The position numbers and the translations under genes are program-made. A model generated the notes under the pieces. It saw nothing but the letters and a program-made list of their open reading frames with translations. It was not told where the DNA came from and made no database searches. A stretch of DNA of 64,000 nt. Origin: an uncultured delta proteobacterium. Lineage in GTDB: Bacteria > Desulfobacterota > BSN033 > UBA1163. The first letter of the stretch is position 1. Each line of letters opens with the position of its first letter. Location of the stretch: contig CAWHBU010000006.1 of NCBI GenBank assembly GCA_963827685.1, forward strand, positions 192,001 to 256,000, written 5' to 3'. This document shows, in pieces, positions 13,779 through 43,161 of this stretch.

Positions 13779-14133
13779 TGGTGGAGGCGGCGGGAATCGA
13801 ACCCGCGTCCGAGAACCTTCCGGCAGAGCATCTACATACATAGCCTATGTTTTAGATTCGCCCTTCCAAACTCCCACAGGCAGGATTCCAGAAGAACTAG
13901 CTTATGAAGATTCGCTCCTCACCCTATAAGCGTCGGGGAGAAACTATCCTGTTTTTCTGACATCCCTTTCCACCCCACAGGAAGGAATGGGAGGGACGCT
14001 AGCTGCGCTTAGGCAGCCAGGGCATAATCGTAGTTGTTTGCGATTATGTTTAACCCCATTTGTTTTACGAGCCAATGGGACCTCGGCATGCAGCCCTGAC
14101 GTCAACGATCCCCGTCGAACCCTTTTCGCCCCC
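13779..14133 (-). ncRNA. ssrA: tmRNA; tag peptide (A)ANNYDYALAA* at 14009-14041
   Basis: 5' GGGGGCG..GGTTCGAC; 3' GGTTCGATTCCCGCCGCCTCCACCA; acceptor stem with G3.U; tag ends YALAA. Confidence 0.97.
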
Positions 14134-18026: not shown

Positions 18027-18610
18027 GGGGAGCCGAAGGGAACCATAAGCCGAGTTCTGTCATCCCGACCCCGCTTTTCAGCGGGAATCGGGAGGATGGC
18101 CATTTATCTAGGGCCCTGATTGCCCAGGGTCTCAAGCGACCTTACCCGTTCCGCCTTTGTCCCGATGCAATAGCCTCGGGAACAAATTTGAATGGGCTTT
18201 TCTTATCCTCCCAGTGGAATAGGCGAAACCGCCATTCCACTGGGGGAAGCGGAACCTATTTGGTCTTGCTCCAGGTGGGGTTTACCTAGCTACCCCAATC
18301 GCTCAGGGTACTGGTGAGCTCTTACCTCACCTTTTCACCCTTACCCACCAAGGCTCTCGCCTTGGAGTTCGGAGTTGATAGTTCGGAGTTAAAAGCACTA
18401 AACTCTTAACTCTTCACTCATAACTCTTAACTCCCCGCTATCAGCGGGGCAGGCGGTATGTTTTCTGTGGCACTTTCCTTATCCCGCCTTAGCGGGACAG
18501 TCCGTATTACGGACCACCCTGCCCTGTGGAGCTCGGACTTTCCTCCCCTCCTGATCTCTACTTCACGTGATCTCAGAAGGAGCGACCATCTACTTCCCTT
18601 CGACTCCCCC
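18027..18610 (-). ncRNA. rnpB: RNase P RNA, type A, expanded (~580 nt)
   Basis: GAGGAAAGTCCGAGCTC, AGTGCCACAGAAA, GGTAAACCCC..GAGCAAG, ACAGAACTCGGCTTA; P1 GGGGAGTCGAAGGGAA/TTCCCTTCGGCTCCCC. Confidence 0.95.
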
Positions 18611-19996: not shown

Positions 19997-20072
19997 TGGT
20001 GGGCCCACCTGGGTTCGAACCAGGGACCTACCGGTTATGAGCCGGTGGCTCTTCCAGCTGAGCTATGGGCCC
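19997..20072 (-). tRNA. tRNA-Ile2 (CAT anticodon, lysidine type)
   Basis: GGGCCCATAGCTCAGCTGGAAGAGCCACCGGCTCATAACCGGTAGGTCCCTGGTTCGAACCCAGGTGGGCCCACCA; typical position downstream of rpoD. Confidence 0.9.
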
Positions 20073-32835: not shown

Positions 32836-32922
32836 GGTCACGCGAAAAAGCCAAACCCTTCGTAAGAAGGGGGCGGAAAGCGGCGGGTCTTTTATGACGA
32901 AGATGGCCGAGTTGCCGAAGGT
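32836..32922 (+). promoter_or_regulatory. Cyclic di-GMP-I (GEMM) riboswitch
   Basis: AAGCCAAACCCTTC-GTAA-GAAGGGGGCGGAAAGC..GGGTCT...AGATGGCCGAGTTGCCG; GNRA tetraloop; compensatory C21-G46 pair. Confidence 0.85.
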
Positions 32923-39457: not shown

Positions 39458-41197
39458 ATGAAAATAATGAAAGGCTTTTTTAATCAACTTCTTCGAATCG
39501 ATCTCTCTAAGCAAAAGTCTACGGTCGAACCCATTCCTGAATCGATTCTCCGATCCTATCTGGGTGGAAAGGGTTTAGGGTCCTATCTTCTTCTTAAAGA
39601 AAATCCACCCCATATCGATCCCTTTTCACCGCAAAATCGCCTTATCATCACATTAGGTCCCTTAGCGGATACCCCTTTTTATGGCTCCAGTCGTTACGCC
39701 GTCTTCACCAAATCTCCTCAGACTGGAATCTATTCTGAATCCTATTCTGGAGGAAAGATTACCCTCTCCCTCAGCCGAACCGGTTATGACGCCATCATCA
39801 TTGAAGGAAAATCGAATCATCCCATTTTTCTCGAGATCAGCGACAAAGAGGTCGTCTTCCACTCTGCCTCAAGCCTCTGGGGAAAAGTGACCTACGAGGC
39901 AGAAGAGGCCATTCTCAAGAGGGTTGGTAAAGATTCTGGGGCTTTGGTCATTGGCCCGGCGGGTGAGAATTTGGTCAAATTTGCCGTGATCGGGAGTGAG
40001 CGCTGGCGTTCCCTCGGAAGAGCCGGAATCGGTGCGGTGATGGGATCAAAGAAGTTGAAAGGGATTGCCTTTCACGGAAAGAAGCGCCGGGAGATTGCTG
40101 AACCCTCTTCTCTAAAAAGATTGGCCCTGAAGTTTAAAGATCGAGTCAAAGGCAATGAGATCATTCACATGTATAAAAAATATGGAACCCCCATGCTGGT
40201 TTCCATCATGAACACCATTGGCGCCTTTCCTACGCAATATTGGTCCAAAGGGACCTTGGAGGGGTGGGAAGGAATCAGCGCCGAGAGCCTGATGGAACGC
40301 TGTCAGGTGAGTTCGATCGCCTGCCCTCATTGCTTCATGGCTTGCGGGAAAATCTCTGAGGTCAAACAGGGAAGGCATCGAGGCCTTCGCATCATGGGAC
40401 CGGAATATGAAACCATTTATGCCTTTGGAGGACTTTGCATGGTGAACTCCATTGAGGAGATCATTTATCTTAACGATTTATGCGACCGTCTGGGAATGGA
40501 TACTATTACAGCAGGAAACTTGGCGGCGTTTGCCATCGAGGCTTCAAAAAGAAGGAAGATCAAAGACAACCTCCAATATGGAGATGTGGATGGCATTGCG
40601 GCGATCTTAACCAAAATTGCATATCGAAAAGGAGTGGGGCGTATCTTGTCAGAGGGAGTCCGCCATGCCGCAAAGGTCTGGGAGATGGAAGAGAAGGCGA
40701 TTCATGTGAAAGGCCTGGAGCCTGCGGGCTTTGATCCCAGGGTACTGAAGGGAATGGGGCTTGCTTATGCCACATCGGATCGAGGGGCCTGCCATCTCAG
40801 GGCGACCTTTTATAAGTCCGAACTTTCTGGTCAGATTGATCCTGATCAGATAAAGGGGAAGGCCAAGCTTTTTGTGGATTATGAGGACAAGATGACCCTG
40901 TTCGATGCCCTGATCCTCTGCCGCTTTTATCGGGATTTAGTCACCTGGAAGGACCTTCAAGAGATTATAAAATCTACTTGCAACCTTTCACTCAAGAAGA
41001 AAGAACTAAGAGCCATGGCCTCTGGAATTATCAATCTCGCCAGGGCTTTCAATCAACAAGAGGGGTTGACAATCAAAGAGGACAAACTGCCTCGTCGATT
41101 CTTTCGAGAAGTTCTCCAGGAGACAGGAAAAACGATCCAACCCGAAGATCTGAAATTCATGTTGAAGGAGTATTACGAATTGAGGGGCTGGAAGTGA
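39458..41197 (+). CDS. Tungsten-containing aldehyde ferredoxin oxidoreductase family protein
   Basis: YLGGKGLG, KSPQTG, IGPAGEN, GRAGIGAVMGSKKLK, C..C...C, PEYET, DRLGMDTI, RGACH. Confidence 0.93.
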   Translation: MKIMKGFFNQLLRIDLSKQKSTVEPIPESILRSYLGGKGLGSYLLLKENPPHIDPFSPQNRLIITLGPLADTPFYGSSRYAVFTKSPQTGIYSESYSGGKITLSLSRTGYDAIIIEGKSNHPIFLEISDKEVVFHSASSLWGKVTYEAEEAILKRVGKDSGALVIGPAGENLVKFAVIGSERWRSLGRAGIGAVMGSKKLKGIAFHGKKRREIAEPSSLKRLALKFKDRVKGNEIIHMYKKYGTPMLVSIMNTIGAFPTQYWSKGTLEGWEGISAESLMERCQVSSIACPHCFMACGKISEVKQGRHRGLRIMGPEYETIYAFGGLCMVNSIEEIIYLNDLCDRLGMDTITAGNLAAFAIEASKRRKIKDNLQYGDVDGIAAILTKIAYRKGVGRILSEGVRHAAKVWEMEEKAIHVKGLEPAGFDPRVLKGMGLAYATSDRGACHLRATFYKSELSGQIDPDQIKGKAKLFVDYEDKMTLFDALILCRFYRDLVTWKDLQEIIKSTCNLSLKKKELRAMASGIINLARAFNQQEGLTIKEDKLPRRFFREVLQETGKTIQPEDLKFMLKEYYELRGWK

Positions 41198-41473
41198 CCT
41201 TGCCTACCCCCAGTTTTTAGAAGTACTGAGCTTTTTAGGAGCAAGCCACCCGGCCGAGCCCCTCAGAGAGGCTTCACAGGCCGCACCGCTTTGCGCTTGG
41301 GTACATGGACCTCAACGTTATAAGGAAGTTCCCCTATGTTCCTCGGTCAGGTTACAAAATACTCTCTAAGAAATCGGCCTTATGAAGCCTTGAAGAGGGG
41401 GTTGGCCAGGTGGCAAGTTACATCCATTCCACCCAGCCTGGAGAGGATAATGAAAAACTGGAGGTGGGCAAGG
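41198..41473. mobile_element. 276-bp non-autonomous element (21-bp TIR, 9-bp TSD) enclosing a rod-shaped structured RNA candidate
   Basis: TIR CCTTGCCTACCCCCAGTTTTT / AAAAACTGGAGGTGGGCAAGG (19/21); DR TGGAAGTGA at 41189-41197 and 41474-41482. Confidence 0.8.
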
Positions 41474-41568
41474 TGGAAGTGACCACTTTACCTCCTGTCA
41501 TTCAAATGGTAATATAATAGAAATGCTAAGCGCTTAGCGCATTGCAGTGAACGATATAGGTAAACGCG

Positions 41569-43161
41569 ATGGGCTTCTGGAACTTGAAGAAGAAGATCAT
41601 TCTCAGCGTCGTCATGGTGGTCCTGGTGATCGAAGGGATTTTCCTCTACCTGAATATCCGCTCCCTCTCCCGACAGATTCTCAACAAGACGGAAGAGGAA
41701 GCCTTCAACCTGAGCGAAACGATCCGCTTGAGCATTCGTAATGCCATGATCTTAAATCGAAGAGATGAATATCAAAGAATTATTGATGACGTTGCCCAGA
41801 GGAAAGGGATTGCACAAGTCAGAATCTTTAATAAGGTGGGCGAAATCACCGTCTCCTCCGACAGATCCAAAGTCGGAACGGTGGTCGATAAGAAGGCAGA
41901 GGCTTGTTATGGGTGCCACAGAGAGAACGAGGCAAAAGTGCTCCTGCCCTCCGACAGTAAAACCCGCATCTATCACACGGAAAAACAGAGTCTCCTGGGT
42001 CTGATTAATCCTATTTATAATGAGCCCTCCTGTTACCCTTGCCATCCAAAAACCCAGAATGTCCTTGGCGTCTTAGACACAACGATCAGCCTTGAAGGTT
42101 TTGAAAAGGAGAAGGCCGAAATTTACAACCGCATGATCATCTCGGGAATTGTCAGCGTCATCATTCTCAGTTTTCTGTTGAGTCTATTACTCACCCGATT
42201 TGTGAACCGACCCATTGATAAACTCTTGGCGGCTACGAAGACAGCGGCTCTTGGAAATTTGGATCAGACCGTGTCCATACGTTCTCACGATGAACTCGGA
42301 GAACTTTCTGACTCCTTTAACAATATGATCTCCGAACTCAAGCGCTCTCGCGATGCCATCGAAGAATGGACTCAAACCTTGGAACGTCGCGTCTACGAGA
42401 GGACCCAGGAACTCCAGCGGGTCCAAGATCAGCTCATCCATGCCGGCAAGATGGCCGCTCTCGGAGAACTGGCGGCTGGCGTCGCTCATGAGATCAACAA
42501 TCCCCTCACCGGTGTTCTTACCTTCAGCTCCCTGATGCTCAAAAAGGTGGATGAAAACCACCCCTGGAAAAAAGATTTAGAAAACATTGTCCAACAGACC
42601 ACTCGATGCAGGAATATTGTAAAGGGCCTTTTGGACTTTGCTCGGCAGAGAAAACCGGATAAGAAAAAGTGGGATATTCATGCGTTGATTGACAATACGC
42701 TCACCCTTGTTGAAAAACAGGCCCCTTTCCAGAATATCAAAATTGAAAAACAATTTAAAACGGTGATTCCCATGCTCTTTGTTGATGGAGACCAGATCCA
42801 GCAGGTCTTTATGAATATCCTTCTCAATGCCGCAGATGCCATGGCTGGAAACGGTGGGACTCTGACCATTAAAACAGGCTTTAAGGATGGATTGACAGAG
42901 GTCTCCTTCATTGATACAGGGGGTGGGATTGCGAAAGAACACCTCTCTAAACTCTTTGACCCTTTTTTTACCACCAAGGAAACCGGCAAAGGAACGGGGT
43001 TAGGGTTGGCGATCAGTTATGGAATTATTCAAAGCCACGGTGGAGATATTGTAGTGGAAAGTGAGGTGGGAAAGGGATCTACCTTCCGGATCAAACTTCC
43101 AATTGAAAAACAAAATGGGGAGTTAAGGCGATCGGGAGATGTGGGGAATGAAAGAGTGTAG
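41569..43161 (+). CDS. HAMP sensor histidine kinase with di-heme c periplasmic domain
   Basis: CYGCH and CYPCH between two TMs; [26 protein letters not shown]. Confidence 0.9.

Follow-up and report, generated by a model that had tools for sequence, protein, structure and literature searches.

An IS4-type mobile insertion cassette with a conserved hairpin module, placed 13 nt upstream of a promoter in an uncultured delta proteobacterium

In a 64,000-nt stretch of DNA from an uncultured delta proteobacterium (hereafter the window; contig CAWHBU010000006.1, positions 192,001 to 256,000), a 276-bp element (41198–41473) lies between the genes for an aldehyde ferredoxin oxidoreductase (AOR) and a sensor histidine kinase. 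The element is a recently moved non-autonomous DNA transposon: a miniature transposable element with inverted repeats (MITE) or, more exactly, a mobile insertion cassette. We consider it probable, taking all parts together, that it is the MITE of an IS4-type insertion sequence (IS), that this system follows a promoter-proximal target rule, that the base-paired interior of the element (the rod) is a selected cargo, and that no 6S RNA is detectable in it; what the rod does stands outside this judgment. What this analysis chiefly adds to a preliminary description of the same DNA, which had read the element as a mini-transposon with a 6S-RNA-like interior, is the promoter-directed target rule together with the IS4-type partner.

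The source genome (G000; 5.23 Mb, 14 contigs, 94.5% complete) was compared with 14 genomes of the same genus, and the terminal inverted repeats (TIRs) of the element were searched in 55 genomes of the bacterial family, comprising 21 genera. Metagenome contigs were scanned with the exact TIR, which gave at least 127 stretches; 78 stored loci were analyzed. C numbers denote contigs of the source genome, other G numbers its relatives, and L numbers stored loci.

RESULTS

Ends, copies, and empty sites

The element is bounded by 21-nt TIRs, CCTTGCCTACCCCCAGTTTTT on the plus strand (41198–41218) and its pairing partner on the minus strand (41453–41473). The two are complementary at 19 of 21 positions, and a repeat search returned a 22-nt arm at 91%. 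A perfect 9-bp target-site duplication (TSD), TGGAAGTGA, flanks the element at 41189–41197 and 41474–41482. The left copy contains the stop codon of the AOR gene (TGA, 41195–41197), and the same stretch is single-copy at the empty site of relatives. The direct repeat extends to 11 nt around the TSD because the TIR begins with CC and the flank goes on with CC. Both the TIRs and the duplication of the stop codon had been noted in the preliminary description, and they stand. The element has no capacity to code for a transposase and contains short, unconserved open reading frames (ORFs) only. It had been described as free of ORFs altogether, which is not strictly correct, as a 48-aa ORF exists at 41336–41482. 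The element is non-coding nevertheless, since ATG-initiated ORFs of at least 30 aa are missing from two of the six genome copies and differ among the others.

Six full copies were found in the genome, namely the window copy and five further ones at 88–91% identity. A 92-bp copy with an internal deletion, one divergent copy, and solo ends are present as well. Direct repeats of 9–10 bp, some of them mismatched, were seen by eye to flank most copies; the copy at C5:273936 was unclear. Allowing up to two mismatches, the family consensus of the TIR, CTTGCCCNCCCCCAGTTTTT, gave 135 matches in 26 of the 55 family genomes and 13 of the 21 genera, compared to 11 matches for the reversed pattern used as a control.

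The interval between the AOR and kinase genes was located without the element in all 14 same-genus genomes. The spacer measured 52–196 bp in 11 of them, versus 400 bp here. Nine of these intervals were inspected in sequence; none contained the element, and they showed the duplicated stretch once, with a conserved promoter after it, as in G002 (GGGGTTGGAAGTAGACC-TTTTACC-N17-TAAAAT) and G003 (...TTAGCCCCC-TTTACC-N17-TAAAAT). The hexamer TTTAC[CT] was kept in eight of the nine, and N17 followed by TAAAAT was read in four (G002, G003, G006, and G011). As the site is empty in the genus relatives, the insertion postdates the divergence from the closest relative (92% AOR identity). Judged by flank sequence, at least one further insertion of the source genome, at C3:892445, also occurs in G009, G004, and G005. 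Short length with TIRs, TSDs at independent copies, and multiple copies combined with empty sites, the features by which MITEs are recognized, were all found. The mobility proposed in the preliminary description is thus borne out by several copies, TSDs, and empty-site alleles.

Two side observations concern the insertion site. The spacer between the AOR and kinase genes contains other small palindromic repeats in G003 (L103) and in G008 (L109), where an extra gene is also present (...CCCTGTTAGAAAT.../...TTTCTAACGGGG...); the spacer is a recurrent landing zone. Furthermore, the junction of TSD and left TIR (41189–41204), read by eye as TGGAAG-TGACC-TTGC, has the GG-N10-GC spacing of a sigma-54 −24/−12 element. 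This is probably coincidence, since the duplications of other copies differ.

Placement 13 nt upstream of −35 hexamers

Target statistics were based on 83 distinct ends from the stored loci, with flanks read outward from the CTTGCC end. An exact TTGACA was present 12–14 nt outside 24 of the 83 ends (offset 13, 20 ends; offset 12, three; offset 14, one), compared to zero to two ends at any other single offset. With one mismatch allowed, the hexamer was found at offsets 12–14 of 34 ends. Control offsets gave no exact TTGACA, and a hexamer with at most one mismatch at one of 83 ends in each of two control sets. As every element has two ends and only one of them faces the hexamer, 34 of 83 ends amounts to the majority of elements. 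Because the hexamer is located 3 nt past the 10-bp duplication, it is part of the target, not of the element.

When the flanks were aligned on the hexamer, a second signal, T-A-n-n-n-T, appeared after a 17-nt spacer. TAnnnT at a spacer of 16–18 nt was found at 23 of the 34 targeted ends. The same test was positive for 278 of 941 intergenic TTGACA hexamers in this genome (29.5%) and for 104 of 2380 coding ones (4.4%); measured against this baseline, the targets are mostly complete sigma-70-type promoters. The window copy fits the rule with a weaker hexamer. Its end at 41473 is followed, after 13 nt, by a plus-strand promoter at 41487–41515 (TTTACC at 41487–41492, a 17-nt spacer, and TAATAT at 41510–41515), which is conserved in the relatives. 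In a simple promoter and terminator scan this promoter scored below threshold (8/12), and no terminator was found on the plus strand of the element. The promoter-side end was the 3′ side of the rod in 16 cases and the 5′ side in 12, and six ends had no nearby rod; the orientation toward the promoter is therefore free.

An association with promoters might also arise by selection alone, if insertion were random and only copies just upstream of promoters survived. Insertions into genes would be purged, and the −10 box is more frequent at the targets than at intergenic hexamers in general, although a transposase that reads the sequence would have no need of it. Survival, however, cannot yield a spacing that is sharp to one base (20 exact hexamers at offset 13 vs. 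zero to three at every other), and another MITE family in the same genomes, family D described below, shows no such pattern. Selection as the sole cause therefore appears most improbable.

In the titles and abstract openings returned by searches of the openly available literature, neither −35-directed insertion nor these repeats were described. Measured against these titles and openings, a placement upstream of −35 hexamers with one-base sharpness is unusual for such elements.

An IS4-type partner in metagenome contigs

The preliminary description had suggested looking for an IS with the same CCTTGCC ends, and an IS4-type IS of about 1.6 kb was indeed found in metagenome contigs. At least nine distinct elements of 1588–1905 bp share the TIRs there, besides at least 22 distinct MITE-sized pairs of 109–455 bp. 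Two long copies were examined (L247 and L175); each encodes a 110–133-aa DUF6788 protein and a DDE_Tnp_1 transposase (Pfam PF01609, 1.6e-09 and 1.1e-11). The ORF in L175 contains the motif LYRSRMRIEQGFRDWK, read as Y-2-R-3-E-6-K, a signature that we take to be the hallmark of the IS4 family. With the DDE_Tnp_1 domain, this signature, and a TSD of about 9–12 bp (a length taken from the MITE copies), the partner has the features of an IS4-family element. The 13-nt spacing was also observed for six of the nine full-length IS copies among the matches listed (one of them with TTGCCA), from which it follows that the target rule belongs to the IS system.

No TIR pairs 1–3 kb apart were found in the 55 family genomes, and a fuzzy TIR search of the source genome returned no pairs above MITE size. 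The sole candidate of a looser, mostly noisy search (C4:712445–714296) is not an IS. The solo end at C3:811170 was likewise rejected as an end of the partner, the adjoining IS being unrelated and having inverted repeats of its own. The 15 ORFs adjoining solo ends are housekeeping genes, and none of them encodes a transposase. Four multi-copy DDE_Tnp_1 IS groups of this genome were also discarded as partner, all having ends unlike those of the MITE.

Some further observations were made on these IS. The DDE_Tnp_1 groups of the source genome comprise seven copies (413-aa ORF), five copies (529 aa), six copies (497 aa), and about 15 copies (441–525 aa). Beside a solo family A end (that is, an end of the window element's type) and a tRNA gene lies an IS-like unit (L031:1301–2841, corresponding to C3:811900–813440), in which a 433-aa ORF stands between 26-nt inverted repeats (TGTGTTAGCAAAGTAGAAATGTCCCC). 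In the partner IS itself, a TTGACA lies 2 nt inward of one TIR, and a palindrome of the TGTACATGTACA type and the DUF6788 ORF come after it (L251:1029–1100, L201:849–920, and the right ends of L215 and L200). To judge from its sequence, this arrangement looks like an operator-controlled transposase promoter, and the internal TTGACA may bear on how the system reads the TTGACA of its targets.

Structure and conservation of the rod

The rod occupies 41245–41414 on the plus strand and consists of three helices and two purine-rich loops. Its 5′ arm (41245–41283; alignment columns 1–40) leads from helix 1 through a purine-rich 3x3 loop to helix 2 (GGCTTCA) and, past a CA bulge, to helix 3 (GGCCG). 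The apical domain (41284–41374) is variable in sequence apart from the short conserved strings CACCGCTT and GGTTAC, and the 3′ arm, CGGCCTTATGAAGCCTTGAAGAGGGGGTTGGCCAGG (41375–41414), is the best-conserved stretch of the element. The pairing of the inner arms had been recognized before and was confirmed (41245–41276 vs. 41383–41414, 78% complementary over 32 nt). The additional inner stem of the preliminary description, GGGTACATGG/CCTATGTTCC, did not hold: by eye it is complementary at about 7 of 10 positions, and it is neither used in the predicted fold nor conserved. For both strands, the predicted fold of the entire 276-nt element is a single long hairpin (−122.2 and −123.4 kcal/mol; z = −6.6; equaled by none of 200 shuffles).

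In whole-element alignments the TIRs and the two arms of the rod were best conserved, above all the 3′ arm (CGGCCTTATGAAGCCTTGAAGAGGGG), which in distant relatives was the only part to be matched, with an identity of about 90%. Spacers and apical domain are variable. An alignment of 41 rod modules from 12 genomes was compared with a structure drawn by hand, which has three helices with 33 pairs in all, and RNAalifold recovered the rod from the same alignment; a consensus structure of the apical domain was not found in it. In the 33-pair structure, 88.9% of cells were paired versus 83.0% in shuffles, and 90 cells were changed on both sides versus 31 in shuffles (0 of 500 shuffles reached either value), figures that overstate the significance, as the sequences are related. 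Slid controls were at most 57% paired. Twelve of the 33 pairs showed changes on both sides, so that the helices are kept through compensatory changes. A lack of covariation, together with a lack of expression, had been named in the preliminary description as the mark of a plain MITE.

A covariance model of the rod (R1) found rods in 40 of 54 other family genomes and in none of 13 genomes of two sister families. Up to 39 were present in one genome, and several hundred in the family (at least 150 among the matches listed, and 340 further). In a collection of genomes, 33 of 44 rod-motif matches fell in metagenome-assembled genomes (MAGs) labeled delta proteobacterium, Thermodesulfobacteriota, or Syntrophaceae; the remaining 11, in other taxa, were taken as chance, there being no full-length rod match. 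Long family A elements (443–559 bp) contained two rods in opposite orientation in four of the five searched (L042, L043, L044, L054, and L060).

Among the matches listed, R1 had no match in the nine full-length IS loci at E ≤ 1, and of the 22 MITE-sized elements that share these TIRs in metagenome contigs, 10 were rod-less (by nhmmer; R1 gave one 16.5-bit match). The rod is thus cargo and not part of the transposition machinery.

The rod in MITEs with other ends

R1 also found rods without family A ends in the source genome. They share a common layout of helix 1, a purine-rich loop, a helix 2 of 7–8 bp, a small asymmetric loop, a helix 3 of 4–5 bp, and the string (C/A)ACC(G)YTT. Helix 2, read by eye, is GGCTTCA/TGAAGCC in family A, AACTTTA/TAAAGTT in family B, and AGCTTTA/TAAAGCT in family C, and the ends of the three families differ too. 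In the source genome, family B was seen at C2:574378, C3:321478, C6:332722, C2:958337, C2:721229, and C4:112931, with inverted ends of approximately TAAACCTTAACGTTGCAT, and family C at C4:364088, C2:199197, and C2:572502, with inverted ends of approximately GACTGTGTCATAATGA.

The 220-bp MITEs of family D have the ends CCCRSMWGTTGCA and a duplication of 4 bp that is TTAA-like; variants of the form TAAA...TAAA and ATAA...ATAA establish that the TTAA is a direct repeat. The family is present in G027, G077, G030, and the source genome (C3:1110281). This last locus had been considered as an ancestral host gene for the rod and was rejected, being itself a family D insertion that G009 has at the same site, where G006 and G012 lack it. 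A search for a family D partner returned only pairs of about 220 bp, in three genomes. No exact TTGACA was found at any offset of 35 family D ends. As family D carries the rod without being associated with promoters, the rod is not what leads family A to them.

On sequence comparison, the rod is common to at least four MITE families. A covarying hairpin that is shared, across one bacterial family, by MITEs of different ends and duplication lengths is unusual. The view of the interior as a structured non-coding cargo, already put forward in the preliminary description, agrees with the compensatory changes, with the MITE families of other ends, and with the absence of the rod from the IS and from some MITEs with the same ends.

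Other families of short palindromic repeats recur between the genes of the source genome, as at L031:690–790 and L033:190–250 (on C3 and C6) and at L032:520–580 (...GTGCCCCTTAACCCCGC...GCGGGGCAC... and CCCTCTCCCC...GCAGGCAGGCAAGGGGAGAGGGG).

DISCUSSION

Proposed mechanism of insertion

Starting from the observed mobility, ends, TSDs, empty sites, fixed 13-nt spacing, and IS partner, the following course can be proposed. The 20–21-nt ends of an IS4-family element enclose a foreign, non-coding hairpin module. A DDE transposase acting in trans would recognize these ends and make a staggered target cut of 9–10 bp. The cut would be placed 3 bp upstream of a −35-type hexamer, which would leave the end of the element 13 nt from TTGACA in either orientation. 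In the window, the element inserted once the species had separated, with the AOR stop codon on one side and the conserved histidine kinase promoter on the other. As to how the target is found, we lean slightly toward a transposase, or a DUF6788 partner, that reads the hexamer directly; a system that reads promoter-bound RNA polymerase or a sigma factor seems improbable.

Several observations weigh against parts of the interpretation given here. The sequences counted across relatives are not independent, and the shuffle figures overstate the significance of the rod. One protein query with the partner transposase found no homologue in the source genome or the 14 other genus members, and in six of the 54 other family genomes it found only fragments of 29–47% identity. 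Some of these fragments contain stops or lie at contig ends; G025 and G028, both rich in family A MITEs, are among the carriers. Since the partner is absent from the genome searches, the window copy is an orphan in the present assembly. Among the matches listed, a matching TSD was found for one (L178) of eight full-length IS copies with both flanks (L175, L177, L200, L212, L215, L251, and others), unlike the MITE copies, most of which have one; these IS copies may be chimeric metagenome contigs assembled across a repeat. The −10 enrichment at the targets could in part reflect the survival of insertions rather than the choice of target. No clear orientation rule was found, either toward the promoter (16 to 12) or toward neighboring ORFs (crude ORF calls), and neither the alignments nor the simple promoter and terminator scan revealed a conserved promoter or terminator inside the element. 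Evidence for a preferred strand of the rod is likewise weak: G·U exceeded A·C by 111 to 53 in family A, by 68 to 51 without two conserved G·U columns, and by 20 to 12 in family D, plus three conserved G·U positions. Finally, a single RNA run contained a share of 0.04 of the words sampled. The contigs obtained from it, which as contigs are unable to show transcription, are copies of relatives: three reached 90–95% likeness, and two of these lie on parts of the rod and continue into unlike sequence; they are evidence neither way.

Possible roles of the rod

A plain MITE with a neutral filler as its interior would owe its structure to mere descent from a palindromic ancestor, and the copies are indeed related by descent, which is why the shuffle control overstates significance. 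Pairing is nonetheless kept at 88.9% in copies that are only 65–75% identical, 12 of the 33 pairs are changed on both sides, and families B and C keep the layout of helices and loops with different helix sequences, matching R1 over the full length with 32–58 bits. Furthermore, the rod is better conserved than the spacers adjacent to the TIRs. We therefore give a neutral interior hardly any credence. The rod is most likely a hairpin kept by selection on base pairing, whichever transposase moves it.

Such selection could act on the RNA or on the DNA. For a single-stranded form speak the arms, which differ consistently at the internal loops, the better conservation of the 3′ arm compared to the 5′ arm, and the conserved wobbles, all of which are G·U on the plus strand of the window (two in family A, three in family D) and none A·C. 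On our analysis, the rod might be a cis-acting RNA hairpin of the REP or Correia kind on neighboring transcripts, serving as 3′-end protection or as a processing site; we put this forward as a tentative assignment, the likeliest of the roles considered but somewhat short of an even chance. As both strands fold equally well, the orientation of a cis-acting hairpin would not matter. A small RNA that acts in trans, 6S-like forms included, is unlikely.

The rod might instead work at the level of DNA only, as a fold-back or cruciform or through inner protein-binding sites that aid excision, synapsis, or replication of the MITE. The nearly symmetric fold-back with its equal folding of both strands, the free orientation of insertion, and the modest bias of G·U over A·C all agree with this, as does the resemblance of the outer rod to the TIR (GGGGGTTGGCCAGGTGG vs. 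GGAGGTGGGCAAGGTGG, 82% identity). The absence of the rod from the autonomous IS and from almost half of the same-TIR MITEs among the matches listed argues against it, and so does its occurrence with other ends and another TSD length in family D. Identical half-sites for a protein would predict neither the differences between the arms at the internal loops nor a better-kept 3′ arm, and five of five conserved wobbles are G·U on the same strand. A role confined to DNA consequently appears rather improbable, though well within consideration.

A broader picture would combine both sides of the system: an IS4-type element and its MITEs that integrate by reading promoters, with a cut 3 bp upstream of the −35, possibly set by a sigma-like DNA reader or by promoter-bound RNA polymerase, and a structured RNA of about 170 nt that spreads as the cargo of several unrelated MITE families. 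We regard this combination as doubtful as a whole.

Relation to 6S RNA

In the preliminary description, the rod was compared to 6S RNA and a decoy for RNA polymerase was suggested, partly on account of two strings on the minus strand. Both strings are present; their 6S flavor is without support, as Rfam 6S searches were blank. A search of the window with all Rfam models at gathering score gave four unrelated matches and no 6S. A permissive scan with all Rfam models (E ≤ 10) of 41100–41600 produced chance-level matches only (best E = 1.1) and again no 6S, and the same scan of a second rod returned nothing relevant. The comparison with Rfam models that had been proposed as a check hence gave no relevant match to the element. 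In the whole genome, the 6S model had no match at E ≤ 0.001 or at E ≤ 10, and ygfA (PF01812), a landmark of 6S loci, was not found. As the control search detected 6S in only 5–7 of 14 known genomes, the genome-wide blank is weak evidence either way.

A cargo that acts in trans as a 6S-like rod with a central bubble would serve as a decoy for sigma-70 RNA polymerase and might tether the transposition complex to promoters. The length of about 170 nt and a loose fit in shape (a long closing stem, internal loops that are small, and an apical domain that is large and has little pairing) are compatible with such a function, as are the position of family A elements at sigma-70 promoters and the lack of a 6S match (E ≤ 10) or ygfA elsewhere in the genome. 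A 6S gene would be a single housekeeping gene in a stable context, whereas R1 has up to 39 matches per genome, and those loci that were examined are insertions, including C3:1110281, where the rod lacks family A ends. Neither the element nor the second rod matched 6S at E ≤ 10, no conserved internal promoter or terminator was seen, and family D carries the rod with none of its 35 ends near an exact TTGACA. In addition, rod-less full-length IS copies still lie 13 nt from TTGACA, so that promoter targeting is independent of the rod. With no Rfam match, a rod that is multi-copy and mobile, and a family D that ignores promoters, the 6S or decoy reading is very unlikely. For annotation, the element accounts for the 285-bp gain between the AOR and histidine kinase genes, and a 6S RNA label is unwarranted.

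Comparison with known systems

The closest likeness is to the mobile insertion cassettes of the Bacillus cereus group (MIC231), which have the ends of IS231, a member of the IS4 family, an unrelated interior, a TSD of about 10 bp, and a transposase that is encoded elsewhere. Similarly, IS4-family ends flank unrelated internal DNA in the present element, the TSD is about 10 bp, and mobilization would occur in trans. The first bases of the IS231 end presumably resemble the TIR of the element as well (C-A/T-TGCCCA). In contrast to MIC231, the cargo here is a non-coding hairpin instead of genes, the partner IS has an extra DUF6788 ORF, and insertion occurs a fixed distance away from a −35 hexamer, its target.

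Correia elements, REP/BIME, and ERIC sequences are short, intergenic, multi-copy palindromes whose transcripts fold into long hairpins and affect neighboring transcripts. Correia elements, which are MITEs of Neisseria, have TIRs and a TA duplication; REP and REPIN sequences have neither TIR nor TSD. The present elements differ from Correia elements by their fixed distance to a promoter, by the lack of a TA duplication, and by a rod layout of three helices and two loops that recurs across MITEs with different ends. They do not belong to the REPIN/RAYT system, as TIRs and TSDs are present and the partner is a DDE transposase. They are also no IS200/IS605-derived PATE or omega-RNA elements, given the TIRs, the TSD of 9–10 bp, and the absence of any HEARO or IS605-type Rfam match. 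With 6S RNA (RF00013) the rod shares a rod-like shape of about 170–180 nt with internal loops and, loosely, a link to sigma-70 promoters, which family A adjoins. Unlike 6S RNA, it has no match to the covariance model, is multi-copy and mobile, lacks a conserved neighborhood, and occurs in MITEs that ignore promoters.

IS1202-group elements are reported to insert 5 bp from XerC/pdif sites (PMC10132070), and some IS to target REP sequences (PMC1525189). Insertion of a DDE-type element at a fixed short distance from a recognizable host sequence is common to those systems and the present one. The present system differs in that the landmark is a sigma-70 −35 hexamer and the element is usually a MITE.

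If the target rule is true, it describes a natural transposon that seeks out the upstream edge of sigma-70 promoters, precise to a single base. It would then bear on how mobile DNA finds safe or useful landing sites and on the rewiring of promoters, as upstream activator and UP-element sites are moved about 280 bp away. Tools for promoter-directed insertion would be conceivable. If promoters are indeed read, the system would be a bacterial counterpart of the promoter-directed integration of yeast Ty elements. If the cargo is RNA, it would be a DNA-transposed analogue of short interspersed elements (SINEs) with a function of its own, in one family (MAGs labeled Thermodesulfobacteriota/Syntrophaceae). 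The rod is better conserved than the transposon ends that surround it, and its presence in MITE families with different ends and duplication lengths makes it testable whether the interior of a MITE is mere filler or has a function as RNA or DNA.

Neighboring genes and other features of the window

The upstream gene (39458–41197, plus strand) is an ORF with matches to the Pfam domains AFOR_N (2.1e-72) and AFOR_C (5.3e-111). The downstream gene (41569–43161, plus strand) encodes the sensor histidine kinase, with the Pfam domains HAMP, HisKA, and HATPase_c. The Rfam matches in the window at gathering score were a tmRNA (13779–14133, minus strand), a c-di-GMP-I-GGC riboswitch (32841–32920, plus strand), a tRNA (20000–20072, minus strand), and an RNase P class A RNA (18030–18602, minus strand). 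The latter measures 573 nt for a model of 367 positions (260 bits), and R1 had no match there; this RNase P RNA gene probably carries a large insertion or expansion.

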